DNA from: a virus
IMG/VR virus record: IMGVR_UViG_3300045520_000024
DNA: 45,817 nucleotides
Reading direction: 5' to 3' (one strand)
Positions 2,601 to 45,486 of this stretch are shown piece by piece. The translations under genes and the position numbers were made by a program. Position 1 is the stretch's first letter. Each line of letters opens with the position of its first letter. The notes beneath the pieces were generated by a model. That model did no database searches and was not told where the DNA came from. It saw only the letters and a program-made list of their open reading frames with translations.

Positions 2601-4103
2601 TCATCTCCTTTCCTCAAGTGCTTTAATTCTTTTTTCTTGATTTTCTTGAATTGAAATAAGATTAGAATTGATTAATTGTTGTTCTTGATTGCTTCTCTTT
2701 AGTTTTTCAACATCTAACATTATTGAATTAATTACCTCTTTATCAGTAATAGAAGCACTAATTCCATCTAATTTCTCATTAATATTAGTAACAGCAGTAT
2801 TAAACTCTTCTTTGCTTGAAGCTACACTATCACCAAGATTAATAACTTCTTGTTTCGTTTCTTCAATAACTTTCTCAGCTTCAGTTACTTGTTCTTTAAC
2901 TTTTACGATTTCTTTTGATTGCTTCTCCATATCAGCTTTAATTTCTAAAAGACGTTTTCTGTCTTTTTTTAATTGTGCTTGATACTTACTTAATGTCATC
3001 TGTACATCTCCAAAATCTAAATCCGATTCTTCAGGAGCATTAATATTAAAGTTAACCCCTACAATTCTTAATTCTTCGTCAATCGCCATCGGGGGATTAA
3101 AAACATGATGAATGTTACCTTCTTGATAAGTTTCGATATCTAAACCAATCAATGATAGGTCCAACGCTTTGATTTTAAACACACCAGAAGCAACAATAGG
3201 ATTCGAAATATCTTTTTTAGCTTGACTAAGTAACCTATCAGCTTTTGTAATATCATCGTAATTGACCGCTTTTCCTTGTATGCCAAATAAATTAATATAC
3301 TCTTGTGTAGCATCTAAATACTCAATACCATTATTCACACTAGCAATTGTCAATCTCGGCTGGGAAGCATCATTCTGATTTTCTTCTGTAGCTTCTTGCC
3401 TTTCTCCTCTAGGAAAAATACGTGTCATGACTTCCGCTGGATTGATTTCTTTTGACATTGACATAAGATTTTTTGTTAATTCGATATCTGTTGTTGATTT
3501 CTTACCAATTTTTTTAAGCCAGTCAATATACTTCACACCATTTTCAACGCGTATTTGAATTTCGCCACCTAACGCATCACGATCAAGTAGTTTCTCTTGA
3601 ATCGTTTCCCAAGTAGTAGACGAATCATCCATATAGTAAAACGTATCAGGTAGCTTATTTTCAACATCTATTTTCCCAACAGTGAATTGTTTGTACTTTT
3701 CTACTTGTTTGTTGTGAACGCTGATAATATGCTCAAGTATCAATCTTGAAGTCCCTTTTATTTTCTTAAAACTTTGAATGCTATCTTGAAGAAATCCCTC
3801 TTGTGACTCACATAAATAAGTAAAAGCAAATGTTTCATCTTCTGAAAATTCTTCGATAGGCTCTAAAACTCTACCTTCAAACACTTTTTTATTGTTCAAC
3901 GTATCAGTTACATCAATTAAAGAAATTAAAGGTTTAATTAAACCGAACCCTGGATTATTAGGATAAATAGTAAAAGTGAAAGAATGAATCGCGTTAATAC
4001 CACGTTTCAAACTATTACTTTCTACTTTGATATCGTTTAATAGAGGCGAATGTATCATGATTGGCTCTGAATTTGGTGTTTCTCTTAATTCAACTAAATA
4101 CAT
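2601..4103 (-). CDS. Tail-associated protein Tal (prophage-tail endopeptidase-type N-domain, coiled-coil C-terminus)
   Basis: It lies immediately after Dit. The N-terminus MYLVELRETPNSEPIMIHSPLLNDIKV is typical of siphovirus Tal proteins. The C-terminal third is a long coiled coil. Confidence 0.7.
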   Translation of the reverse strand: MYLVELRETPNSEPIMIHSPLLNDIKVESNSLKRGINAIHSFTFTIYPNNPGFGLIKPLISLIDVTDTLNNKKVFEGRVLEPIEEFSEDETFAFTYLCESQEGFLQDSIQSFKKIKGTSRLILEHIISVHNKQVEKYKQFTVGKIDVENKLPDTFYYMDDSSTTWETIQEKLLDRDALGGEIQIRVENGVKYIDWLKKIGKKSTTDIELTKNLMSMSKEINPAEVMTRIFPRGERQEATEENQNDASQPRLTIASVNNGIEYLDATQEYINLFGIQGKAVNYDDITKADRLLSQAKKDISNPIVASGVFKIKALDLSLIGLDIETYQEGNIHHVFNPPMAIDEELRIVGVNFNINAPEESDLDFGDVQMTLSKYQAQLKKDRKRLLEIKADMEKQSKEIVKVKEQVTEAEKVIEETKQEVINLGDSVASSKEEFNTAVTNINEKLDGISASITDKEVINSIMLDVEKLKRSNQEQQLINSNLISIQENQEKRIKALEERR

Positions 4104-4816
4104 TAAATAACCTCCTTATACCAAAAGAATTCGATTGTTCCGTTACCCTTGATAAGCATTTTATTCTCACCTTTTTTGATGTTAAACTTCTTCGTTTCTG
4201 TTGTTCCTTGTATAATTTCATACACCGTATTCTCTATCTGAATAGTCATGTTAGAGCTTGCTATGATTTTCGGATAACAAGAAGTTGCTCCAACGTTAAA
4301 CATAGTGACTTGTTGTTGACCTCTGATGTCATACTTAGTAATCTGAGCGATATCTAATTCAAAATTAAAGATATCCCAAATATCGTTGCCTTCTGCCTCG
4401 TTTGAAATCTTAAATGAGTAAGCATCGAACGTCACAGTCATTAAACCTTTTCCGTTTCTTTCTTCGAAATCTGGTTCATCGACTACCTCAGCTAAGAAAT
4501 GATATCCAGGAATAGCATCGTCAAACAAAGGAACTCGTTCATCCACTGGGACAAACGAGTTCAAAGCTTTTATTTTTAAGGTGTTCATATCAACTTTGTT
4601 ATGCGTTTTTTTATCAAAAACGTTAAACGTATATGATAATTCGCGACTTTCATATTCTTGATCACCGTACAATTTTGAGAAATCAAGGTCAATATTAGAA
4701 AAGGGAACGCGTTTCTTATGCTTTATCTTCTTAGGATTGCCAATTTTTTTCTCAACAATTGTTAAACCTAAGTCGTTAAAACTATGTATATTATCAAACG
4801 AAATTCCATAATACAT
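4103..4816 (-). CDS. Distal tail protein Dit
   Basis: It lies directly after the tape measure with an ATGA-type overlap. The N-terminus MYYGISFDNIHSFNDLGL resembles the phage tail family (Sipho_tail). Confidence 0.7.
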   Translation of the reverse strand: MYYGISFDNIHSFNDLGLTIVEKKIGNPKKIKHKKRVPFSNIDLDFSKLYGDQEYESRELSYTFNVFDKKTHNKVDMNTLKIKALNSFVPVDERVPLFDDAIPGYHFLAEVVDEPDFEERNGKGLMTVTFDAYSFKISNEAEGNDIWDIFNFELDIAQITKYDIRGQQQVTMFNVGATSCYPKIIASSNMTIQIENTVYEIIQGTTETKKFNIKKGENKMLIKGNGTIEFFWYKEVI

Positions 4817-7800
4817 TAATTCAGCACTCCCCTTTCTTCTAATCTTCCTCTTCTTGCTAATTCATTATCGGTGTGTGGTGCTGTTTGACGACTCACACGC
4901 TTACCGTCCATATTAACTACAACAGTACCGTTTCCAACGCCTGCAGCAATTTGACGTAATAAAGAAATGATTTCAGATAAATCAGTATTTGAACTATCTG
5001 AATTGCTACCACCTAACACATTAATCGTTAATGTTCCTAACTGTTCTGCGACTGAATCAAATAGATTGTCTAAAGAGAAACTCTTAACACTATTTAACTT
5101 GTCACTCATGTTTGTCATCAAGTTACTAGCAACATTAGGAATATTCGAAATAAACTCCATTCCACTCATTCCCATGTATTTCAATGACTGCATGATAAGT
5201 TCCATTGCGCGCTTAGGTTTTGTTAACGGGATAACCATTTCTGCTTTATTTCCTTCTCCAGCTCGATATAAACCGTCTTTAGTGATTAAACCGCCGTTTT
5301 CATAGCCAACACCACGATAAGCAGCTGTTAAACTACCGTAGCGACTTACAGCATAACGAATAGAAGCAAGCATATTGGATAATGGATCATAGATATCTTT
5401 ATTGAATGGCGCCCTAGCGTGAGCTCTAAAGGTTGAACCAATCACTTGGAGCAGTCCTTTTGAAGGGTCTCCATTAATAGCATTGATATCCCAATTATTG
5501 ATAGCTCTAGGATTACCACCCGATTCAGTACGCATTTGATTCATCATTGCGTTTAAGTTGGAAGCTGAATATTGCCCTTCCATTTTTAACGCTTTAATAG
5601 CTAGACTTCTCCAACGTTCAACGCCACTCATACCGCCAGTGTCTCCACTACCAGTAAAGATATCACCTGAACCCATAGCACCGTTTAAATGTATATGGTC
5701 GAAGTGGTCATTGTCTGGCCAGTTTACCCACGAACCAGATGAACCAGTTCCGGATAACCCCAATCGGTCTCGGACTTTACCAAGCGTGATAACATATCCG
5801 ATTTGTTTAGGGAATTTGTTAAAGGCGTAATCTGCAATTGTTTTATACCTAGAATCGCCAATAACTCCTGGATAAGCTAAATCTAGTGCTTGATGTTTAC
5901 CATGATAATACGGGTCGCCTGGACGATAACCAGAAGTAACAGTTAAACCAGGGAATTTGCCCATTAATTTTTGAGCCACATCAACAAGATATTGATAAAC
6001 GTTATTAGCGTTCATTGCACCATCAAACGTTCCATGACTAAAGAATTTGTCCATTTCAGACTTAACTAAGCCAAACGCTTCACCAGTCATTAACTTAGTT
6101 GCTGATTTACTCATATTTAACCAAGGTTCTTTGACTCCATCAAAATTAACACGCTTATCAATAAAGTTCCTAAATGCATCTGGACCGTCTAATAAATCAA
6201 CGATATCAAAATCTCCGATTCCATCTTTATAAGCAGGTAAACCGTTCATTTTCGCAACAGTTCGACCACTCATAACTTTAGTCCCTTTAGGTAAGTTAGC
6301 TATCAAATTCTTGATACGTGGGAATAAACCGACACGTCCGTCAGGTGTTTGATAAGCTTCTTGCCAGTTTAAATCTCTAGCATCATTTACTAGAGCTGGA
6401 CCGTTAAACGGATGTCCATCTGTTCCTTTGGCATAAGCAGGAATCTTCCAGGAAGGAAGTTTTCTATCTGAGCCGACTTCGCTTAAAACAAAATTAACGC
6501 CAGTTAGCAATCCGTTGATACCTTTGCTAATTCCGTTTAACATTTCTCCGTTTATATTTCTGATAGCTGTTTGAATAACTCCTTGTCCATTTTTGATACC
6601 TGTTGCTAAAGAATTCATCAAACTTAATCCTGCGTTACGCATATTAGTTTGATGCTTATTAACATTCGCTACCATCAATTGACCAATACTAAATGCACGA
6701 CCTTGAGCTAATACAAATAAACTGCTAAAACCATTTATTACGTTTTGTAATAAAGATTTACCAGTTTGAGACATTTGAGGAAAATATTTAGATAAGACTG
6801 TGTTAAGCATTGTCATTAAGTCGTTACCAGATTGGTTCATTTCAATGGCTGTTGAATCAATACCATCTGATACTGCAGAACCTAACTCACTACCAACGTT
6901 AAACACATCAGGGATATCATTTGAGAGAACATCAGTAAACTGCGTTCCTAAATTCATGTCCGTTTGAACGTCAGGAGTTTGAGTTTGATTATTAATAATT
7001 GGCTCAGCAACATTAACAACTGTTTGAGCTGTTTCAAATGTTTTAGAAACAACACTTCCCATATTTTGCACAGCATTTTTAACAGTTCCAGCTTTATCTG
7101 AAATACCTTTAGCAACACCAATTGGAATCCATTGAGATATTTTAGCCATTACTCGTGAAGGAGAATGAATATCAAGTTTCTCTTTGAACCAACCTTTGAT
7201 ACCGTCTGTGACTTTACCAACGGCATCTTTAACAGCGTTTATTTTATCGGTGATACCTTTTACAAGGCCGTCCATAATGTTTTTAGCTATCTCTGTTAAA
7301 TCAATAGAGCTTACTGTATCAACAATATTATCTTTTATTTCAATGAATTTATTAACGACACTATCTTTTAACTCAATAATTTTATTAATAAATCCGTCTT
7401 TTAGATCAATTACTTTCTGAACTACTGAATCTTTCAATTCAATAATTTTTTGAGGTACCTCAGTTACTAGCCAAACGAACATAGAAACCACATCAGCTAC
7501 TAATTCGTTAATTTTTTGAATAACTAAGTTTTTCATATTAACAAAGCCATTAACAATAGTATTTACAAGTGATAAAACTAGCTCAGCTAATGTTGTAATA
7601 GCTTTATTCCATGATTCAACTATCCAATTCCAAATAGTTGTAAATATTTCGACTACCTTGTTTTTAATACCTGTTACAGCAGTAACGATAATACTCGTTA
7701 GAAATTGGAAATAACCTATAGCAAAAGTAATAATACCTTGCCAGATACCAACAATGGCATTAGATAAATTTTGCAAGATGGCAATTAAATCTGTTTTTAA

Positions 7801-35883: not shown

Positions 35884-36123
35884 TTAAACTACCTCCTTTT
35901 GTTTCGATTTTCGATACTCCGAACTGAAAATTTTTTCAATCGGAATCCCTAAGATCTTAGCTAATGCAGGTAACTCTTCGGGTTGAAATTTGTACTCACC
36001 TGTTTCACGTCTATAATATTTAGATTTATTGTTAAATCCAAGCTTTATAGCCATGTCATTTAGAGAGTAACCTTTATCTTGCCTAGTTTCTTTAATCAAG
36101 TCTAAGTTTACTTTGTAAATCAT
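35884..36123 (-). CDS. Cro-like XRE-family HTH regulator
   Basis: The motif GYSLNDMAIKLGFNNKSKYYRRETG is present. It is divergent from the repressor gene. Confidence 0.7.
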   Translation of the reverse strand: MIYKVNLDLIKETRQDKGYSLNDMAIKLGFNNKSKYYRRETGEYKFQPEELPALAKILGIPIEKIFSSEYRKSKQKEVV

Positions 36124-36143
36124 GTTGTCGCCCCTTTCTTGTA

Positions 36144-36221
36144 TCGATTTTAGCAACTTTATATTCATAGTATACATTGCGATTTTAGATACGTCAATAT
36201 AAAAGTAGCGATTTTAGGTAC
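36144..36221. promoter_or_regulatory. Three operator-like repeats containing CGATTTTAG
   Basis: tcgattttagcaac (36144-57), gcgattttagatac (36179-92) and gcgattttaggtac (36208-21). Confidence 0.55.
36169..36197 (-). promoter_or_regulatory. Early lytic promoter (TTGACG, 17-nt spacer, TATACT)
   Basis: Read on the minus strand. The middle operator copy lies in the spacer. Confidence 0.6.
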
Positions 36222-36286
36222 TTTTCGTATCTTTTTTAGAAACGATGATAAAATTAAGTTGCGAAATAAGTAACGGAGGTGTTTTA

Positions 36287-36658
36287 ATGAACGATTTAAT
36301 TAGAAGAATAATTAATTTAAGAGAGTCTAATGATTGGTCACAAGCCGAATTAGCAAGGCGTTTAGGTGTTGAGAAGTCTGTCATGAATAAAATAGAAAAC
36401 GGAACAAGAAAAGTTTCCTCTGATGAGTTAATAAAATTATCTGAGTTGTTTTCTGTAACTACAGATTTCTTGCTTGGTAAAAATTCAACACCCGACTGGG
36501 CAACGCAAGATGATTTAATTCAATTAGAAGATATGCTTAAATCAAATGTGCCTATGGCTTATAACGGTGTTGAGTTGAATGAAGAAGATAAAGAAAGAAT
36601 TAATGCAGTTCTTACTCAAGTTTTCTGGGAACGGTTAAAGGAACAAAAAGAAAAATAA
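36287..36658 (+). CDS. cI-like XRE-family repressor
   Basis: HTH WSQAELARRLGVEKSVMNKIENGTRKVS and RBS aacggagg. Confidence 0.8.
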   Translation: MNDLIRRIINLRESNDWSQAELARRLGVEKSVMNKIENGTRKVSSDELIKLSELFSVTTDFLLGKNSTPDWATQDDLIQLEDMLKSNVPMAYNGVELNEEDKERINAVLTQVFWERLKEQKEK

Positions 36659-36670
36659 GTGGTGATGTAA

Positions 36671-37102
36671 TTGTATGAAGAAAGATTGATGAATAGACTC
36701 GCTCCTATCTATAATAGAGCGAAAACATTCAATCCTTTCCTGATAGCCGAAAGCGAAGGAATTGAATACAAGTACGTTGATGCATCATCTGAGTTTGAAG
36801 GACAAACGTCGAATGTGATTGGGAAACCATTGATTGTTTTAAATTCAAACTTAATTGATTCACCAAGAAGATTCGTTGTTATGGCTCATGAGATTTGTCA
36901 TGTATTGTTACATAACGGATTAATTAGTTATTACACATTAGGGAGTTTACAACAAAGTAAAATGGAGTATGAAGCTAACAAATTCACTTCTATCCTCTTA
37001 ATCAATTTCTTTGTTGAATATACTGGGGATATGCCTGAGAGTTTTCAGGCGATGCAAAATGAATTTATGTTGGAAGATGAGTATGAGAAATTTTATTTTT
37101 AA
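36671..37102 (+). CDS. immA: ImmA/IrrE-family metalloprotease (anti-repressor protease)
   Basis: HEICH zinc motif. It lies directly downstream of the repressor gene. Confidence 0.8.
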   Translation: MYEERLMNRLAPIYNRAKTFNPFLIAESEGIEYKYVDASSEFEGQTSNVIGKPLIVLNSNLIDSPRRFVVMAHEICHVLLHNGLISYYTLGSLQQSKMEYEANKFTSILLINFFVEYTGDMPESFQAMQNEFMLEDEYEKFYF

Positions 37103-37116
37103 AAGGAGTTTTGAGA

Positions 37117-37677
37117 ATGGGATTATTTGATAAAGGTATGTTTGTAAATGGTGATTTCAAAGGGTTTATCCAAGTAAACAAAAAGACTAAACAATTCAAA
37201 TTAAAAGGTATTCTATTACCACTTGAATATCAAAATTTACTTTCTTATGAATTACAAGAGAATGGTTCAACTGTTACTAAAGGTGGAATCGGTGTCGGTC
37301 GTGCTGTTGTCGGTGGTGTTCTTTTTGGTGGAGCTGGCGCTGTTTTAGGTGGGCTTTCGAAAAAGAAAACTAGCAAAGAGATTATAAATAAAATGGAAAT
37401 TCGAGTTTCTATGAAAGAATCTATCAAAAATACTTATTACGTTAAAATTTTCGATAAAAAGAAAGTTGAAAAAGGCAGTAAAGAATATGATAAATATGTA
37501 AAATATGCTCAAAATGTTTTATCCGTGTTAGACGACATCGCCAGCCAAGCACAAGAATTCCCTACCTCTCCTACTCCTGACGTTGCTACTCAGTTAAGAG
37601 AGTTTAAAGCACTACTTGATGATGGTATCATCACCCAGGAAGAGTTTGATAGGAAGAAAATGGAGTTGTTGGGATAA
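37117..37677 (+). CDS. Glycine-zipper membrane protein with C-terminal SHOCT domain
   Basis: Glycine zipper GGIGVGRAVVGGVLFGGAGAVLGGL. SHOCT-type C-terminus LREFKALLDDGIITQEEFDRKKMELLG. Confidence 0.65.
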   Translation: MGLFDKGMFVNGDFKGFIQVNKKTKQFKLKGILLPLEYQNLLSYELQENGSTVTKGGIGVGRAVVGGVLFGGAGAVLGGLSKKKTSKEIINKMEIRVSMKESIKNTYYVKIFDKKKVEKGSKEYDKYVKYAQNVLSVLDDIASQAQEFPTSPTPDVATQLREFKALLDDGIITQEEFDRKKMELLG

Positions 37678-38334
37678 ATGAAAGATAAAAAGAATATAAT
37701 CATAGCTATACTTTCTGGAATCATTATCTTAGGCATTGGTTATATGATAGGTTCTAGAACTCAAAGTAAAGAGGTTACGGATTTAACACCCCAGCCTACT
37801 ATTAATGAATCAGTAACAAGTAACTCTACAAAACAGACTACGGCATCTACATTCAAAGATGTTGAATTAACAGATAAAACGTCTGAAAACAACAGAAATT
37901 TACCAACAGAGCTTCTACCCTACTCTGATGAAGAAATTGAGTATGCTAGAGTTTGGTTAGCTGTTATGGGAGAAGATTATCTTGATAGAATTGGCAGAGA
38001 AAACTTTAATCTAAATATCTCTTTTGTAAAAAAAGGTGAGCCATTATATTTCCCTAAAAGTGAACTTAACATAAATTGGCCACAAGACACAATTTTACTT
38101 ACTGGAAACGCATCTGCTCAAGGGCAAATATTCTATTCAAGTAATTTTGATGGTTCAGTTTCAGTTTACCCTATGCCATCTCACTGGCATCAGGATCCTA
38201 AGGATTTGGCAGATGACGACTATATGACAAAATATCTAAATAGTATTTTAGCTGATAAGAAAATTGTTCCTATACCTGCAGGAAATCCTAAATTAGTTAA
38301 AGAGTTGGTGCAGTTGGAAAAAATTTATAAATAA
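37678..38334 (+). CDS. Membrane-anchored extracytoplasmic protein (superinfection-exclusion candidate)
   Basis: N-terminal TM segment IIIAILSGIIILGIGYMIGS. The start is coupled to the upstream gene (TAAATG). Confidence 0.55.
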   Translation: MKDKKNIIIAILSGIIILGIGYMIGSRTQSKEVTDLTPQPTINESVTSNSTKQTTASTFKDVELTDKTSENNRNLPTELLPYSDEEIEYARVWLAVMGEDYLDRIGRENFNLNISFVKKGEPLYFPKSELNINWPQDTILLTGNASAQGQIFYSSNFDGSVSVYPMPSHWHQDPKDLADDDYMTKYLNSILADKKIVPIPAGNPKLVKELVQLEKIYK

Positions 38335-38396
38335 GCCTTTCGAGGCTTCTCCCCTTTGCTGGGAGTAAGGTATAAAAAATAATAAGGAGGATGGAA

Positions 38397-38840
38397 ATGG
38401 ATTTAGATAATTTAAATGATGATGAAGTTAACGAACTGATTAAATCTTTAAAAAACCCATCAAAACTATTTGTTATCGATGATATTAACAATGAGTTATC
38501 ATCAATGTTTGGAAAAATAGATATTGATGAAATTGTAATCGGAATAATCGACAATATTGAATATACTCTTCATATCTTTAGGGGAAAAAGAGAATCAAAC
38601 AGGTATAGCATTAACCTAAGGTTTACTAATAAGTATCATCAACTTATCAGAATAGACATAGGTTCTAACCATACAAATCCAGATAGTACACAAATTATTG
38701 GAGACCATATTCATTTCTATAGTAACCAATACCCTAAAAGAGATCGAATTGCTTATCCAATAGATATTTCAGATTTTCCAAATGTTTCAAATATAACAGA
38801 TGCGTTTAATCAATTTACATTGTATACTAACATAAAATAG
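38397..38840 (+). CDS. Uncharacterised 147-aa protein with a His cluster (HTNPD...GDHIHFY)
   Basis: RBS aaggagg with 6-nt spacing to the ATG at 38397. It forms a pair with the next gene. Confidence 0.6.
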   Translation: MDLDNLNDDEVNELIKSLKNPSKLFVIDDINNELSSMFGKIDIDEIVIGIIDNIEYTLHIFRGKRESNRYSINLRFTNKYHQLIRIDIGSNHTNPDSTQIIGDHIHFYSNQYPKRDRIAYPIDISDFPNVSNITDAFNQFTLYTNIK

Positions 38841-38858
38841 ATAAAGGAGGAGAATGCA

Positions 38859-39656
38859 ATGAGTAAACTTCTACGACTAAAGAAACAATATTCTGATTGG
38901 ATAATGGATAGCATGAACTACACTCAACTCGATAAAGATGTTGTACGAATTGATACTCCATTCCTTGATAATGACTTTGATCATATCGTGTTATACGTTG
39001 AATTTCTAAGTAATAATCAAGTTTTAATTACTGATGATGGATATACATTAGCTAATTTAAAAAGTATTGGATTTAAAATTTCTAATCAAACTAAGAAAAG
39101 AAAAAATATTCTTACTGACATATGTGATGATTATGGAATAGAGTTTGATAGTAAGGATAATGAGTTGTTTATTAAATCTAATATGGATAAATTTCCAGTT
39201 TCAAAACATAGACTTTTACAAGCAATTCTAAAAATTAATGATTTATTCTTATTGAGGCCTAATTATGAAGCTAATTCCACTTTTGAAACTGTTTCATTGG
39301 CTTTGGATAAAGAAGAAATATTATATTCTACAAAATTTCCAGCAATCGGAAAAAGAGGAATTACATTCATCTTTGATTTTTCCATTCCAACTCGCTCCAA
39401 AAAAGACAAATTAATTAGAATTATTAATTCTCCAAATGATTTAAACTACTCTAAAGTTTTAAGTATGGACGTTAGTATGCTGCAAGGTAGTAAAGAAGCA
39501 GATTATTTTGCGATTCTAGATGATTTAAATCACGACTTAAAGAACTATTCTGAAATTAAATCAGTATACGGTGAGGTAAAAGAACAGTATAATGTCGATA
39601 TTCAGCCGATAAAAATGTCTCAATTAGATAAAAAAATAGAACTATTAAGAAACTAG
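38859..39656 (+). CDS. Uncharacterised 265-aa protein, recalled as DUF1828/DUF1829-like
   Basis: RBS aaaggagg. The N-terminal pattern VRIDTPFLDNDFDHIVLYVE...ITDDGYTL resembles my memory of DUF1828. This needs an HMM check. Confidence 0.55.
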   Translation: MSKLLRLKKQYSDWIMDSMNYTQLDKDVVRIDTPFLDNDFDHIVLYVEFLSNNQVLITDDGYTLANLKSIGFKISNQTKKRKNILTDICDDYGIEFDSKDNELFIKSNMDKFPVSKHRLLQAILKINDLFLLRPNYEANSTFETVSLALDKEEILYSTKFPAIGKRGITFIFDFSIPTRSKKDKLIRIINSPNDLNYSKVLSMDVSMLQGSKEADYFAILDDLNHDLKNYSEIKSVYGEVKEQYNVDIQPIKMSQLDKKIELLRN

Positions 39657-39679
39657 CCTCATGACGAGGCTTTTCTTTA
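39655..39679 (+). terminator. Intrinsic terminator after the cargo cassette
   Basis: Stem agcctc / gaggct is followed by a T-rich tract. Confidence 0.6.
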
Positions 39680-39798
39680 AAATAAAAAAAGAACATACAT
39701 TCGTATAAATTGCCAAATAATACGAAATAAAAGGTAAAAATATAGGTTTATCCCCTACTTTTAACCTTAAAACTGAATTTGTAAGGAGGAAATACGAA

Positions 39799-40941
39799 AT
39801 GAGAGGTTCATTACGTAAACGAGGAAACAGCTGGTATTATATTTTAGACCTAGCTAAAATAAACGGAAAGAGAAATCAAATTGAACGATACGCAGGTAAA
39901 ACTAAGACTGAGGCACAGGAAACGTTAAATAAAGTTATCCATGAATACCAGACAACCGGAACGCTACCTGTTAACAATAATATTTCAACACATGATTACC
40001 TTGAACATTGGTTTGAAAACTATGTAAAGGTTGAACTAAAACTTAACACTCAAAAGAATTATCGAGGAATGTTAGATAAACACATCCACCCAGCAATTGG
40101 TGATTACTATTTAAAGGATATTAAACCAGCTACACTACAAGAACTATTGAATCAAAAAAAAGAGGACGGCTACGCTAAACAAACATTAGCTATAATGAAA
40201 GGTATTTTTAATAAGGCTTTTTCTATGGCGGTTTATCCGTATGAATTTATAAAAACGGATCCCTCACAGTTCGTTAAAACTCCTAAATACGACCAAAAGG
40301 AATGGAAAGATAAAGGTGATTTAAAAATAATTAGTTTTGATGACTTTAAAAAGTTACAAAATACTGTACCTGCTCACTCCCCTTACTATCTAGCGATGAT
40401 GATTAGTTTTCAGACAGGATTAAGACGTGCTGAGGTATGCGGTTTGCAATGGAAAGATATTAACTTTGATGATGAAACTTTAACCGTTGAACAAATTATG
40501 ATTCAGGATGGTAAAGGCTGGTTAATGGGAACTCCTAAAACGCAATCGTCATACAGGACAATTCATATTGGCCCTTCTCTCTTATCCCTACTAAAAAAAG
40601 CTAAACTTAGACAAAAAGAAAATAAACTATTTTATAGAAATTTCTATACTGAAACAGAATTTGTTTGTACTAAAGAAAACGGTGAGCCTGTTACGTTGAA
40701 CTCAATTAAGTGGTATACAGAGAAATACCGTAAAGAAAGCGGAGTAGATTACAACTTTCATTCGTTCAGGCACACTCACGCAACTATGTTACTCGAAAAT
40801 GGAGCTAAGCCAAAAGAAATACAGGTTAGGCTAGGTCATTCAAGATTATCAACTACTATGGATACATATGCTCATGTTACTAAAAAAATGAAAAAAGAAA
40901 CCGTTGATATATTTGAGAACATATTAAGAAATGAAGCTTAA
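39799..40941 (+). CDS. int: Tyrosine recombinase integrase
   Basis: The motifs GLRRAE, HSFRHTHAT and LGHSRLSTTMDTYAH are present (R-H-R-Y catalytic set). Confidence 0.9.
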   Translation: MRGSLRKRGNSWYYILDLAKINGKRNQIERYAGKTKTEAQETLNKVIHEYQTTGTLPVNNNISTHDYLEHWFENYVKVELKLNTQKNYRGMLDKHIHPAIGDYYLKDIKPATLQELLNQKKEDGYAKQTLAIMKGIFNKAFSMAVYPYEFIKTDPSQFVKTPKYDQKEWKDKGDLKIISFDDFKKLQNTVPAHSPYYLAMMISFQTGLRRAEVCGLQWKDINFDDETLTVEQIMIQDGKGWLMGTPKTQSSYRTIHIGPSLLSLLKKAKLRQKENKLFYRNFYTETEFVCTKENGEPVTLNSIKWYTEKYRKESGVDYNFHSFRHTHATMLLENGAKPKEIQVRLGHSRLSTTMDTYAHVTKKMKKETVDIFENILRNEA

Positions 40942-40974
40942 AAAAATCCAACATTCTACTGACATTTTTAATAA

Positions 40975-40998
40975 ATGTTGGAAGAATGTTGGAAAATT
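40975..40998 (+). repeat. 24-bp direct repeat R1 (ATGTTGGAAGAATGTTGGAAAATT), arm-site candidate
   Basis: 22 of 24 bases match R2. An inverted partial copy CCAACATTCT lies at 40948-40957. Confidence 0.75.
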
Positions 40999-41224
40999 CT
41001 ATTATTCAATTATCCTCGACTCACACAAACCCTTACTACTTCTTAGGTTCATCCTCGTCCATCTTAAGAACAGCCATGAATGCCTCTTGTGATAACGGCA
41101 TTTTCAGCGTACTTCTCCTCTATTCTTAAAACTTCTAAAAGCTTCTTATATCAATCTTTCATTAGAAATAATTTCCGTTTATAACTTCTAGTAAACTCTA
41201 TTAACTTCTACGGTTTTCTGCTTT

Positions 41225-41248
41225 ATGTGGGAAGAATGTCGGAAAATT
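41225..41248 (+). repeat. 24-bp direct repeat R2 (ATGTGGGAAGAATGTCGGAAAATT)
   Basis: 22 of 24 bases match R1. Confidence 0.75.
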
Positions 41249-41259
41249 ATTTGTTCCCC

Positions 41260-41289
41260 TTGACTGATAAGAACGTTTGTTCTTATAAT
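41260..41289 (+). promoter_or_regulatory. Promoter (TTGACT...TATAAT) with an embedded LexA/Cheo box GAACGTTTGTTC
   Basis: The box is at 41271-41282, inside the palindrome ataagaacgtttgttcttat (41267-41286). Confidence 0.65.
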
Positions 41290-41319
41290 AAGAACAACAA
41301 AACAAACGGAGTGATTGCT

Positions 41320-41598
41320 ATGATAAACAACCCAACTGGAATAGTAGATAAGATTAAATTAGTTACTTCCTACCCTGATATGTTAGTAAGATTTACTTTA
41401 GTTGTTGGTGATAATACAATCAATTGTATTTGCGGTGATACTTCTATATGTAACTCGTTACTGTTCTTAGAAGATGGTAAAACTGAGGTTGCGTTGTTTG
41501 GTATTTACAATAGTAGAAAACAATTAGTCGTTAAGAAGATGTTTATCAAGAACCCTACTTCGTTTGAAAGAGTATTTGCGATGGGTGGTGCTGTTTAA
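41320..41598 (+). CDS. Small hypothetical protein upstream of the Y-family polymerase (not obviously YolD- or UmuD-like)
   Basis: RBS ggag 8 nt before the ATG at 41320. Its stop lies 1 nt before the polymerase ATG. Confidence 0.5.
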   Translation: MINNPTGIVDKIKLVTSYPDMLVRFTLVVGDNTINCICGDTSICNSLLFLEDGKTEVALFGIYNSRKQLVVKKMFIKNPTSFERVFAMGGAV

Positions 41599-41599
41599 C

Positions 41600-42919
41600 A
41601 TGTTTTCAAATGACCAATATTTCAACTATGATGATGAACCTAAAAATGACTACTTATGTATTGATATGAAGTCTTTTTATGCTTCAGTTGAATGCGTGGA
41701 GCGAGGTTTGCACCCTCTTAAAACATTGTTAGTTGTAATGAGTGGTGGAGATTCTCCTGGGGGGTTAGCTTTGGCAGCATCCCCTCTTGCAAAAAAAGAG
41801 TTGGGTATCACTAATGTAACTAGAAATTTTGAAATACCTAACCACCCTAAATTAATTAAAGCTCCTCCAAGAATGAATCTTTATATAAAAGTAAATATGA
41901 AAATAAATGATATTTTAAGACGGTATGTTGGTGATGAAGATATCTTAGTTTATTCTATTGATGAAACATTCGTTAGAATTGAAGCATCAAAGCGATTGTT
42001 TCAAATGAATGCTTACGAATTTGCACAACAATTTATGAGAGAAATTTACCACGAAACAGGCCTGTTCTGCACTATCGGAATAGGTGATAATATGCTCTTA
42101 AGTAAGTTGGCTTTAGACAATGGAGCAAAGCATAACCGTGACATGATTGCTACATGGCGTTACAAAGATGTACCCAATACCGTTTGGAAAATACCAAACA
42201 TGACTGACTTTTGGGGGATTAATAAAAGAACTCAAAAAACTTTAAATAATAAAGGGATTTATTCAATTTACGATCTAGCTCATTATGACTTCTTCCAATT
42301 AAAAGACTCCTTAGGGATTGTTGGCGCTCAATTGGTAGCTCACGCATGGGGAATCGATAGAACTGATATATCTGACAGGTATAAACCTAAATCAAAAAGC
42401 ATTGGAAACAGTCAAGTTTTAATGAAAGACTACACGAATGTCAATGAGACGAAAATAGTATTAAGAGAAATAGCTGAACAAGTTGCTACAAGACTGAGAA
42501 AACAACATTATAAAACGTCTTGTATTCATGTGGCTGTTGGTTATTCTAGACTTGAGAATGAAAAAGGATTTTCAAGGCAGATGTCAGTACCTAAAACTAA
42601 CTCATCAAAAGAGATAGTTAATTATTGTATGACTCTCTTTGATAAGTTCTATAATGGATCCACCGTGAGAAATCTTTCTGTTAATTGTTCTAAGTTAGAA
42701 TCAACTGATGTTCTGCAACTTAATTTATTTGAAAAACCTGATGAGACTATTAACAATGAAACACTTGATAATTCTATAGATACAATTAGAAATAGATTTG
42801 GTTTCGGTTCGATTGTTCATGCTAGTAGTTTATTAGATGGTGCAACAGCAATAAATAGAAGTAATTTAGTTGGTGGGCACGCTGGAGGAATGGATGGTTT
42901 AAGTAATGGATTGGGATAA
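41600..42919 (+). CDS. Y-family (UmuC/UvrX/ImpB-like) translesion DNA polymerase
   Basis: The motif YLCIDMKSFYASVECVERG and the GIGDNMLLSKLA motif are present. Length is about 440 aa. Confidence 0.85.
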   Translation: MFSNDQYFNYDDEPKNDYLCIDMKSFYASVECVERGLHPLKTLLVVMSGGDSPGGLALAASPLAKKELGITNVTRNFEIPNHPKLIKAPPRMNLYIKVNMKINDILRRYVGDEDILVYSIDETFVRIEASKRLFQMNAYEFAQQFMREIYHETGLFCTIGIGDNMLLSKLALDNGAKHNRDMIATWRYKDVPNTVWKIPNMTDFWGINKRTQKTLNNKGIYSIYDLAHYDFFQLKDSLGIVGAQLVAHAWGIDRTDISDRYKPKSKSIGNSQVLMKDYTNVNETKIVLREIAEQVATRLRKQHYKTSCIHVAVGYSRLENEKGFSRQMSVPKTNSSKEIVNYCMTLFDKFYNGSTVRNLSVNCSKLESTDVLQLNLFEKPDETINNETLDNSIDTIRNRFGFGSIVHASSLLDGATAINRSNLVGGHAGGMDGLSNGLG

Positions 42920-43780: not shown

Positions 43781-44818
43781 TTATCCTTTTTCTACTTTTC
43801 CATCTTTTAGCATTCTCATTTGAATGGCTTCAATCCGTTTACCACTTGTTCCAGCAACTTCTCCTTGATTCTTCCAATCAGACCAGCCAACATCAGCTGA
43901 ATGAACACGATATTGTAATGTTCTACCAGTGTTTCTAACATCTAAGCCTAAGTCAAACCTAACAACAGAAAGAGCTAATGCTTTTCCAGTTGTACCAGTA
44001 TCACCATACTCCCACTCATGCCACTTCCCTTTAATATCTTGAAAACTAGCTGATATTTTATCAGTCTGATTATCCCAACGAACGTCGATAGCTTCAATAG
44101 GTATAGCTTTTCCTGTAGTCCCAGAGGTTTCTTCAGTACCGACAAACCCTAACCAACCAACATTTGATAAGTGGCTTCGATACCACAAGCCACCTTTCGC
44201 TTTAGGTATTCCTTGAGTGATTTGATTTGGTTTGGGAACACCAGGTTTAACCTCTCCCAATTTTTCACCAGTAATAGATTCAATGAAACCTTTAGCTAAT
44301 TGATCTAACTCTTTATTAATAATACTCATATCTCTTGAGCTAGTAATAAACCCGATTTCAGTTAAACGATAGTTCAAACCTCTTTGAGCGGCTACGTTTA
44401 GATTTAAAAGATTACTTCGATAACTAATGCCGTTTGTGTTAGAAACTCCGCCCCAAAGTCCAACAACACGTTTGATTAAATTTGCCATACTTAAATCAGT
44501 ATTATCAGCCTTAAAACTTGAACTAACTATTACATGTCCACCAGTAGCTGAAGAACCAGCTGCATCTTCATGATACTCACTTATAGTCGTGTAATAACTT
44601 GGACTTATTGAATACATCCCCCATCCGTTTGCTGTTTCTTGGAACATATCCCGATTTCCCGTTGTATCAAAAAAGACGAATGAGTCTTTCGACTTATCCG
44701 CCCATTTCTTCATAAAAGGATGTAATTTTTTTCTATTAAAATCACGTTCATTAGTTCCATTACCAACTGCACCAGGATCACCTGCTCCATGGCCATAAAT
44801 AATTAAATGATTAGCCAT
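43781..44818 (-). CDS. Endolysin: N-acetylmuramoyl-L-alanine amidase plus three ChW cell-wall-binding repeats
   Basis: N-terminus IIYGHGAGDPGAVGNGTNERD. The C-terminal repeats read WYRSHLSNVGWLGFVG..GTTGKAIPIEAI and YRVHSADVGWSDWKN..GTSGKRIEAI. Confidence 0.75.
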   Translation of the reverse strand: MANHLIIYGHGAGDPGAVGNGTNERDFNRKKLHPFMKKWADKSKDSFVFFDTTGNRDMFQETANGWGMYSISPSYYTTISEYHEDAAGSSATGGHVIVSSSFKADNTDLSMANLIKRVVGLWGGVSNTNGISYRSNLLNLNVAAQRGLNYRLTEIGFITSSRDMSIINKELDQLAKGFIESITGEKLGEVKPGVPKPNQITQGIPKAKGGLWYRSHLSNVGWLGFVGTEETSGTTGKAIPIEAIDVRWDNQTDKISASFQDIKGKWHEWEYGDTGTTGKALALSVVRFDLGLDVRNTGRTLQYRVHSADVGWSDWKNQGEVAGTSGKRIEAIQMRMLKDGKVEKG

Positions 44819-44821
44819 AAA

Positions 44822-45157
44822 TTACTCACCACTTTCTTTATCTTCATGTTGTGTATCTTGATAACCTAACCCTTCATCGATTAGATTATTAGCTTTTCTT
44901 TCGTTGTTTAATGCTACTCCATTTGATTTTAAATCATAGAATCCACTCGCTGACATACCAGCTAAACCGCCAGCCCACGCATAGACTATTACTTCTGTAG
45001 GTAAAAAACTTAATGCATAACCTGCACCGATAAGAACACCCACTAATACATTCAAAAATGGCAACCACTTATTATTGATTGGTGTCGCTTTAATCATTTT
45101 AGTTACCCCATAAACTATTGCTCCGATAATTGATGCTGCTGTTAAAATTGCTTCCAT
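44822..45157 (-). CDS. Holin (three TM segments)
   Basis: 111 aa with three hydrophobic helices and a charged C-terminus. It lies directly upstream of the endolysin. Confidence 0.65.
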   Translation of the reverse strand: MEAILTAASIIGAIVYGVTKMIKATPINNKWLPFLNVLVGVLIGAGYALSFLPTEVIVYAWAGGLAGMSASGFYDLKSNGVALNNERKANNLIDEGLGYQDTQHEDKESGE

Positions 45158-45195
45158 TTTAAATTCCTTCTTTCATTTTTTGTTTGGTAAAGATT

Positions 45196-45486
45196 TTATC
45201 GTTCACCTTCAATTTTGTCTAAGCGCCTATGAGCTTGTTTTGTAGACTCTTCATTTTTTATAAGCCTATCTCTGTTCTCACGGCTCTCTTCCCTAATTGA
45301 TTTCATTTCTGATTTAATTTCATTTACACCGTTGCCTATATTTTCAAGCTTTACTAAAGTGCTTGTAGAAGTTGCTACTTCTTCTTTGTCATCTGATTTT
45401 TGGTTTCTTCTAAAACTTGCTAAACCAAAATAAATACTGGAGCATATAGAAATTATTGTTACTAGTACCATTAATTCAATTTTCAC
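45196..45486 (-). CDS. Membrane-anchored coiled-coil protein (XhlA-like position, holin accessory?)
   Basis: N-terminal TM segment LMVLVTIISICSSIYFGLA followed by a charged helix. Confidence 0.45.
   Translation of the reverse strand: MKIELMVLVTIISICSSIYFGLASFRRNQKSDDKEEVATSTSTLVKLENIGNGVNEIKSEMKSIREESRENRDRLIKNEESTKQAHRRLDKIEGER

Follow-up and report, generated by a model that had tools for sequence, protein, structure and literature searches.

What is the two-gene cassette that lies between the lysogeny genes and the integrase of the viral genome IMGVR_UViG_3300045520_000024, and what might it do for a host that carries the prophage? The cassette occupies positions 38397-39656 of the window, by which we mean the whole 45,817-nt stretch of DNA analyzed here, and consists of gene A (38397-38840, + strand), encoding a 147-aa protein, and gene B (38859-39656, + strand), encoding a 265-aa protein. 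A preliminary description of this DNA, made from the letters alone, had placed two + strand genes of these lengths between the ImmA and cargo genes and the integrase, with which our open reading frames (ORFs), coordinates, and ribosome-binding sites agree, and had regarded them as a candidate defense or exclusion cassette. We therefore asked to which families the two proteins belong, whether the two genes form a unit, where that unit occurs, and which functions are compatible with its sequence and predicted structure.

Family Assignment and the Candidate System PDC-M24

Protein A is a member of the Pfam family DUF6978 (PF22398), which it matches over the entire profile (positions 1-133 of 133; E = 7.6e-32, 110.8 bits against a cut-off of 29.6). 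Protein B is composed of two domains in the order DUF1828 (aa 33-126; E = 5.3e-26, 91.2 bits against a cut-off of 22) and DUF1829 (aa 164-232; E = 3.1e-08, 34.4 bits against a cut-off of 22.2), with the N-to-C order of the two families kept. Because of these family matches, A and B are regarded as real genes and not chance ORFs, and the view in the preliminary description that the second protein is DUF1828/DUF1829-like is borne out. In PHROGs, A falls into phrog_17771 (1.2e-42) and B into phrog_5059 (3.4e-56), both of which are families without an assigned function, and no NCBIfam model matches either protein. The searchable literature gave no function for DUF6978 or DUF1828, and that on the Pfam and InterPro accessions, on PDC-M24, and on transcription of the Lactobacillus johnsonii prophage Lj965 held no functional data.

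Among the defense models of PADLOC-DB v2, protein A matches PDC-M24A (PDLC04538, E = 1.1e-20, residues 5-147), as well as three more M24A models, and protein B matches PDC-M24B (PDLC04539, E = 9.6e-52, residues 1-261). All that can be tested of the PDC-M24 definition was found in the window, namely matches to both hidden Markov models (HMMs), adjacency of the two genes, and their A>>B order on one strand. PDC refers to a set of 145 “phage defence candidates” that came from a screen for genes lying inside BREX, DISARM, and type I restriction-modification (RM) loci; in Supplementary file 8 of that study, CAS_00098 (FAM_00129>>FAM_00065, count 153) carries the remark “Assign as candidate PDC-M24,” and the authors themselves describe the PDC candidates as untested (Payne et al., 2024; bioRxiv 10.1101/2024.01.29.577857). 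Judged by these profile matches, the window cassette is a prophage copy of the candidate system PDC-M24, already published and detectable with a standard tool, which corrects the earlier remark that neither gene was recognized as part of a named defense system. The likeness includes gene order and adjacency, and the embedding in type I RM and other defense loci that had defined the candidate was reproduced for relatives of the pair (see below). The window copy differs in being prophage cargo, whereas the original set was embedded in RM, BREX, or DISARM loci, and PDC-M24 is a bioinformatic candidate label, so that membership does not itself show function.

Linkage of A and B Across Genomes and Viruses

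The association of the two genes was examined from both sides. On the B side, one genome for each GTDB species was scanned with a pattern, which yielded 216 relatives, of which 80 loci were kept; on the A side, a degenerate DNA motif encoding H-x-N-P-D-G-x6-H-x-H was searched for in IMG/VR, and 80 loci were taken from 106 stretches (individual loci are given below by their L numbers). Relatives of B were found in Bacillota, Acidobacteriota, Planctomycetota, Chloroflexota, Proteobacteria, Bacteroidota, and Cyanobacteria, and, among archaea, in Methanoregula, Methanosarcinales, and Promethearchaeota. An HMM built from eight close A sequences detected an A ORF in 64 of the 80 B loci, and a 91-sequence HMM detected one directly adjoining B in 73 of the 80. 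All but one of these 73 ORFs lie on the same strand as B and upstream of it, most commonly with a 4-nt stop/start overlap, the remaining one (L070) being convergent with B. Among the seven B loci without an A ORF, B stands at a contig edge in three, a remnant of A is present in two (L047 and L052), and no trace of A was seen in two (L012 and L018); A or an A remnant is thus located beside B in 74 of the 76 evaluable loci.

The reciprocal survey gave the same picture. An A-family protein is encoded in 78 of the 80 viral A-motif loci, and B is encoded in every one of the 73 that include downstream sequence, the other five ending at the locus edge. A and B are convergent in seven of these viral loci and separated by a 2.4-kb gap in one. 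In the convergent subset the genes stand tail to tail, about 0-12 nt apart, thereby retaining adjacency without cotranscription. For the 62 pairs that are complete, pairwise identity among A proteins correlates with that among B proteins (r = 0.89). The two genes are one conserved functional unit that moves as a cassette, and the co-occurrence check that the preliminary description had proposed came out in favor of the pair from both sides (74/76 and 73/73).

Genomic Contexts of the Pair

Besides prophages, the pair is found inside chromosomal defense loci. It is located between hsdS and hsdR of type I RM operons in two loci (L017 and L021), and between genes encoding a DUF1156 and a DUF499 protein, recognized by PADLOC as mad2 and mad5 of the MADS system, in another (L011). 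One MADS flank is present in each of two further loci (DUF499 downstream in L080 and DUF1156 upstream in L065), and in a Methanoregula metagenome-assembled genome (MAG; L013) the pair adjoins a type IIG enzyme similar to Eco57I/MmeI. In the Azospirillum MAG locus L017 (positions 3813-5507), the hsdS upstream of the pair is fused to, or was annotated as one gene with, a Pol-beta-type nucleotidyltransferase domain, which may be a second embedded gene or the result of a mis-called start.

In phages and on plasmids the pair is sporadic. B was detected in 14 of 50,697 phage records, 11 of which also contain A, and the pair in 9 of 72,556 plasmids. In Staphylococcus phage 37 (ORF031 and ORF014), L. 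johnsonii prophage Lj965 (Ljo_0292 and Ljo_0291), and the Streptococcus satellite Javan357, the pair is situated between the repressor (or ImmA) and the integrase and on their strand, i.e., in the slot that the preliminary description had taken for a cargo hotspot of temperate Firmicute phages, and the wider set of viral neighbors fits that description as well. For this set, Pfam scans were applied to the neighbors of the pair in 66 non-redundant viral loci; they replaced a phmmer panel of four integrases and five regulators, which had undercounted the neighbors (9/46 and 22/55). Within two genes downstream of B there are 16 tyrosine integrases and four serine recombinases, and within two genes upstream of A there are 14 helix-turn-helix (HTH), nine S24, and four M78 regulators. 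Other viral neighbors (loci L084-L163) include leukocidins (4), staphylococcal superantigens (2), Ltp lipoproteins (2), and Fic (2), together with Abi_2, MazF/PemK, SocA-Panacea, Mrr, and a PBECR3 nuclease. The slot of the pair gathers both virulence and defense cargo. No CRISPR genes are among the most frequent neighbor families of the pair.

Conservation and Predicted Structure of Protein A

Nearly all members of the A family are single-domain proteins of about 145-170 aa (126 representatives at E <= 1e-3 among 1.84 billion sequences). In an alignment of 91 sequences, K19, H92, and H106 are invariant, and R85, N94, H104 (98%), A119, and F140 reach 90% conservation or more. The His cluster to which the preliminary description had drawn attention is indeed the most conserved part of the family, with the motif R-L-D-I-x4-H-x-N-P-D-G-x2-I-x-G-x-H-I-H-I-Y, and the first ~50 residues are more variable than the rest (pairwise identity 0.31 vs. 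0.40). The AlphaFold2 model of A has a mean predicted local distance difference test score (pLDDT) of 93.7 and a predicted template modeling score (pTM) of 0.88. It consists of two N-terminal helices around a short strand, a four-strand antiparallel meander (residues 41-88), a conserved loop (89-103), two further strands, and a C-terminal helix. The i/i+2 spacing of R85/D87 and H104/H106 predicts that these residues share a single face of the beta-sheet with R62 and R75, beside the H92-x-N-P-D-G loop. This conserved face appears to resemble a phosphate- or metal-binding surface, and the HxH may be a metal or catalytic site, as would fit the conservation pattern.

The profile and structure searches that had been proposed in the preliminary description gave Pfam and PADLOC families for both proteins, and, on the structural side, no fold relative for A and weak nuclease matches for B. 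Foldseek found no relative of the A model in the PDB (best E = 0.065, TM-score 0.26) or in BFVD (best E = 0.12), the best TM-scores over both sets being 0.26-0.27. Resemblances to Bet v 1/START-like and other antiparallel-sheet folds were too weak in Foldseek to be used, and those of the H-x-NPDG...HxH pattern to RelE/ParE, HNH, cupin, and DUF4160 proteins were considered and dropped, as neither Pfam nor Foldseek supported them. Sequence and profile searches of A and B against PDB chains gave no meaningful match, the best being a coiled-coil-like one to hemagglutinin HA2 or KtrC (E = 0.017-0.02). A is predicted to be soluble, with a maximum 19-residue hydropathy of 1.02 as compared with 2.53 for the neighboring membrane protein, and is mildly acidic (isoelectric point (pI) 5.07; family median 6.0).

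Conservation and Predicted Structure of Protein B

The AlphaFold2 model of B, for which the alignment was built from database proteins, has a pLDDT of 89.1 and a pTM of 0.55, the latter being consistent with two loosely coupled domains. In the model, the N-terminal DUF1828 domain is formed by a helix, a four-strand antiparallel meander, two helices, a hairpin, and a long helix, and the C-terminal domain follows the order alpha-beta-beta-beta-alpha-beta-alpha-beta-alpha. The modeled helices 140-151 and 195-208 and strands 157-163, 169-176, 183-189, and 214-220 fit the core order of PD-(D/E)xK nucleases (helix, three strands, helix, strand). Many of the top-ranked Foldseek matches in the PDB are PD-(D/E)xK proteins, all of them weak: Can2 (E = 1.1e-3, probability 0.99), Card1 (probability 0.96), and the nuclease domain of Hef (probability 0.98, target TM-score 0.52), and also the R2 restriction-like endonuclease, NucS, EndoMS, SfsA, EcoT38I, Mus81, Exo5, McrC, and a CdiA-CT toxin. 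Residues at the positions where catalytic acids would be expected are conserved, with E143 in helix 1 at 95%, D173 in strand 2 at 96%, and an acidic residue at 183 at the start of strand 3 (Glu in 89% of sequences; Asp in the window protein). On this weak fold score and incomplete catalytic motif, it is plausible that the C-terminal domain of B belongs to the PD-(D/E)xK superfamily.

The N-terminal half of B is the more conserved one (0.445 vs. 0.390 for the C-terminal half). The N-terminal domain contains most of the invariant polar residues of the family (T33, P34, D37, D41, D59, R81, H117, Q121, N127, and D128), and D60, K80, and K116 are 94-97% conserved. Comparison with hhalign gave no sign of a duplication between the halves of B or of similarity between A and B (probabilities below 1%). 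B has no membrane segment (maximum 19-residue hydropathy 0.79) and a pI of 5.7, close to the family median of 5.8.

Likeness to Known Systems

A validated parallel in domain content is HipAD/DS-6, a two-gene defense system whose second protein carries DUF1829 (DefensePredictor, Science 2026, PMC13092281). DS-6B consists of DUF3037 followed by DUF1829, has the HipA-like kinase and DNA as its predicted binding partners, and led to DUF1829 being described as “newly implicated in defence” (PMC13092281). By domain description, not by sequence, the layout of B parallels that of DS-6B, in that a partner-specific N-terminal domain precedes DUF1829. The N-terminal domain is DUF3037 in DS-6B and DUF1828 in B, however, and the partner of DS-6B is a HipA-family kinase, whereas the partner of B is a DUF6978 protein that matches no kinase family. 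Membership of the pair in HipAD is ruled out by the absence of a kinase.

In Can2/Card1, NucS/EndoMS, and SfsA, an N-terminal binding domain is followed by a C-terminal restriction-endonuclease fold, and their overall size is similar to that of B, although the matches are weak (E = 1e-3 to 1e-2, query TM-score 0.25-0.37) and there is no sequence similarity. The N-terminal CARF domain of Can2/Card1 is Rossmann-like, whereas DUF1828 is modeled as a four-strand antiparallel meander and B has no CARF match in Pfam; in further contrast to Can2/Card1, no cyclic-oligoadenylate synthase is associated with the pair. B is therefore not a CARF nuclease, as it lacks the CARF domain.

The cargo of Firmicute lysogeny modules, such as Ltp/superinfection exclusion (Sie) proteins, abortive infection (Abi) proteins, and toxin morons, occupies the same slot in the same orientation as A-B. 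Unlike Ltp/Sie proteins, both A and B lack membrane segments and lipoprotein signals, which rules out Sie/Ltp membership, and unlike the phage-restricted Abi and Sie genes, the pair is widespread in non-phage defense loci of bacteria and archaea. Neither A nor B matches a known Abi family in PADLOC or Pfam. A recognized toxin family is likewise ruled out for A, for which Pfam, NCBIfam, and PADLOC gave no toxin match and the PDB no fold match.

Proposed Function and Alternative Explanations

As a catalogued PDC-M24 pair that also occurs in RM and MADS loci, the cassette has defense as its leading hypothesis, in line with the candidate role given to it in the preliminary description. We put the probability at roughly 0.5 that A-B is a lysogen-expressed, nuclease-based defense or abortive module, with a mechanism that we infer as follows. 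The A-B unit would be transcribed in the lysogen together with, or downstream of, the repressor operon, as suggested by its orientation, the lack of a strong terminator upstream, and the presence of a terminator downstream, and would protect the lysogen against other, superinfecting phages. B would be the component acting on nucleic acid, cleaving through a DUF1829 domain of PD-(D/E)xK fold with E143, D173, and D/E183, and DUF1828 with its invariant polar cluster might serve as the regulatory or partner-binding domain of B. A could be the trigger or controller of B, or else a second, His-dependent catalytic subunit, and infection would release the activity of A-B on phage or host nucleic acid. 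The mechanism proposed for A and B is the least certain part of this explanation. A more far-reaching form of it, which we hold only tentatively, is that DUF6978 represents a new fold with a His/Lys/Arg active or metal site and makes up, with B, a mechanistically new two-component immunity; it would then be common to bacteria, archaea, temperate phages, and satellites, and might operate by a logic unlike that of any characterized defense family.

Several observations weigh against a nuclease-based defense module. All Foldseek matches of B have E values of at least 1e-3 and query TM-scores of at most 0.37, the best target TM-score being 0.52 (Hef). The residue at +2 from position 183 is Ile or Leu and the basic residue, R/K184, stands at +1, so that the canonical (D/E)xK lysine is misplaced; DUF1829 may be an active nuclease variant or an inactive DNA-binding relic, and is possibly a non-catalytic DNA binder because this lysine is not at the expected position. 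The biochemical role of A is our guess from its conservation pattern. Expression in the lysogen is suggested by gene orientation and not by a promoter finding, as the number of sites in the promoter scan did not exceed that in shuffled sequence and nothing resembling a promoter came up in the 62 nt from 38334 to gene A. Cotranscription is not universal, since A and B are convergent in eight loci in total (L070 and the viral loci L107, L117, L123, L128, L148, L149, and L155). Finally, the searchable literature contains no experimental report on PDC-M24, and as to the other PDC candidates, a cold-seep study validated 4 of 8 and a Pseudomonas study 0 of 2.

The foremost alternative is that the pair forms a toxin-antitoxin or addiction module, in which A would be a toxic effector (e.g., a His-dependent RNase or other enzyme), B would neutralize it via DUF1828, and DUF1829 would bind DNA for autoregulation; phage protection would be a by-product in the form of abortive infection, and the main benefit would be the stabilization of the carrier element. 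Many toxin-antitoxin modules serve as abortive-infection defenses, and the two readings are not mutually exclusive, but we consider it rather unlikely that the pair is best described in this way. The small, translationally coupled genes on prophages, satellites, and RM islands are what such a module would look like, and the decay of A gives a hint in the same direction. Upstream of B (locus positions about 5300-6000), A is decayed in 10 of 76 evaluable loci in which B is intact, being frameshifted in L024, L027, L044, and L055, truncated or a remnant in L009, L035, L047, and L052, and absent in L012 and L018. B, in turn, is intact in all 73 of the loci selected by an intact A motif (Fisher p = 0.0014). 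Such an asymmetry would be expected of an A that does harm when B is missing, although this comparison sets unlike samples side by side (genomes and MAGs vs. viral contigs), with B picked for full-length matches, and some of the frameshifts may be MAG assembly errors. Closer to a known case, the non-kinase partner in HipAD/DS-6 carries DUF1829 and is predicted to be an antitoxin-like binder of toxin and DNA (PMC13092281), which also counts against a nuclease role of this domain. On the other hand, A resembles no known toxin family or fold, and both proteins are mildly acidic (pI 5.1 and 5.7), with none of the complementary charge that toxin-antitoxin pairs often show. B exceeds A in both size and conservation (mean pairwise identity 0.42 vs. 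0.36) and, unlike a typical labile antitoxin, has many invariant polar residues. The eight convergent loci, besides limiting cotranscription, fit operon autoregulation poorly.

It is improbable that the pair serves the mobile element in some way other than defense, be it as a repair, recombination, or processing nuclease of the NucS/Hef kind or in anti-restriction and counter-defense. Such a role would agree with the repair and recombination nucleases among the fold matches of B (NucS/EndoMS, Hef/XPF, Mus81, and Exo5) and with the integrases and recombinases that adjoin the pair in many phages, and counter-defense genes are also carried by phages in such hotspots. The pair, however, lies inside same-strand chromosomal type I RM and MADS operons of bacteria and archaea, far from any phage, and this embedding agrees poorly with a role in anti-restriction or phage replication. 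The phage copies, moreover, are located in the lysogeny module, co-oriented with the repressor, and not in the replication or recombination module, and the sporadic presence of the pair (14/50,697 phage records and 9/72,556 plasmids) is that of accessory cargo and not of a core function. The chance that A and B are unrelated neighbors, brought together as cargo by accident, is negligible: the general mosaicism of the region and the SHOCT and YdeJ-like genes, which are not conserved partners, might have suggested it, but it is refuted by the fact that, over many phyla and usually with a stop/start overlap, the two genes adjoin in 74 of 76 evaluable B loci and 73 of 73 evaluable A loci.

Among the 145 candidates, PDC-M24 stands out by its strict gene coupling, its wide span over phyla, archaea, phages, and satellites, and the unmatched fold of A. 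If the defense reading is true, prokaryotic immunity would gain a new enzyme or sensor fold, and three widespread families, DUF6978, DUF1828, and DUF1829, would gain a function. If it is not, a new addiction module of the toxin-antitoxin kind is still indicated by how strictly the genes are paired and by A being the one that is preferentially lost. The Firmicute prophage copies (in Vagococcus, Enterococcus faecalis, Staphylococcus phage 37, Lactobacillus Lj965, and Streptococcus satellites) are convenient for experiments because of their defined lysogeny-module slot, cultivable hosts, and available phages.

Gene Starts and Flanking Signals

The ORF of gene A opens at an ATG at 38391, and a second in-frame ATG follows at 38397. 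The Shine-Dalgarno sequence AAGGAGG (38384-38390, + strand) directly touches the first of these, but stands 6 nt ahead of the second, and homologs of A start with MDLDNL; from this spacing and these N-termini, we placed the start at 38397 and not at 38391. The stop codon of A and the start codon of B are 18 nt apart on the same strand, and a Shine-Dalgarno sequence of gene B, AAGGAGGAG (38844-38852, + strand), which provides a GGAGGAG site, is read directly in this gap, with 6 nt between it and the ATG of B at 38859.

The preliminary description had the cassette bracketed by hairpins, of which only the downstream one holds as a terminator. An intrinsic terminator follows B at 39655-39679 (+ strand), composed of a stem at 39655-39671 and then TTTTCTTT, a T-run; the terminator scan and RNA folding gave -9.1 kcal/mol and z = -3.45. 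The upstream hairpins, given there as 38336-38370, correspond to two adjacent short stem-loops at 38333-38365 (+ strand) with stems of 5-6 bp and -13 kcal/mol, which on this strand fold no better than shuffled sequence (z = -0.93). No T-tract accompanies them, and the terminator scan did not report them on the + strand, where they are probably not a terminator. With no strong terminator before A and one after B, the cassette is therefore closed downstream and not clearly insulated upstream. The stem-loop region (38330-38375) folds better on the - strand (z = -2.42), where a T-rich run comes after it; no - strand gene ends nearby, and the structure may be a relic or act as a stop in both directions. 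Neither the Rfam nor the tRNA scan gave a match in the window.

Prophage Surroundings of the Cassette

The cassette is preceded on the + strand by a CI-like HTH repressor (36245-36658; Pfam HTH_3, 5.9e-13), an ImmA/M78 metalloprotease (36671-37102; Peptidase_M78, 6.6e-10), a SHOCT-domain cargo protein (37111-37677; SHOCT, 3e-09; phrog_888), and a cargo protein with an N-terminal membrane anchor as judged by hydropathy (37678-38334), and is followed by a tyrosine integrase (39799-40941; Phage_integrase, 4.3e-28). All of these genes, A, and B are on the + strand, in agreement with the orientation shared with the repressor that the preliminary description had reported, and a divergent Cro-like HTH gene (35884-36177, - strand) lies beyond the repressor. 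The YdeJ (PF27223) label of the membrane-anchored protein comes from a 217-aa counterpart on related contigs that have a 99%-identical A and the same gene order, and the SHOCT counterpart on these contigs is labeled PH_gly_zipper plus SHOCT in precomputed Pfam annotations. The SHOCT and YdeJ-like genes accompany the cassette in close relatives, not in other genera, and are not part of the conserved A-B pair.

A megablast search of 36200-41000 against the 50,697 phage records returned no match, and there is accordingly no close sequenced phage in that set. Near-identical cassettes with the same neighbors are present on four other short contigs, and exact copies are annotated in Vagococcus fluvialis (A, WP_207008003.1; B, WP_207008001.1; integrase, WP_207007999.1), the window cassette being that of a V. 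fluvialis prophage.

Just 3' of the integrase, a gene for a Y-family (ImpB/MucB/SamB) DNA polymerase (41564-42919, + strand) overlaps a 123-aa ORF without a Pfam match (41227-41598, + strand), and the two look like UmuDC-like mutagenesis cargo or flanking genes. An endolysin with Amidase_3 and ChW domains (43781-44818, - strand) is located at the right end of the window, where two small ORFs are also found on the - strand (region 43781-45486), and the structural genes head leftwards from ~35 kb as far as the left end (138-35245, - strand). This arrangement of endolysin and structural genes gives the window the look of an entire phage genome in circularly permuted form. On a related contig (L190), the integrase is followed by a few small ORFs and then by the lysis module.

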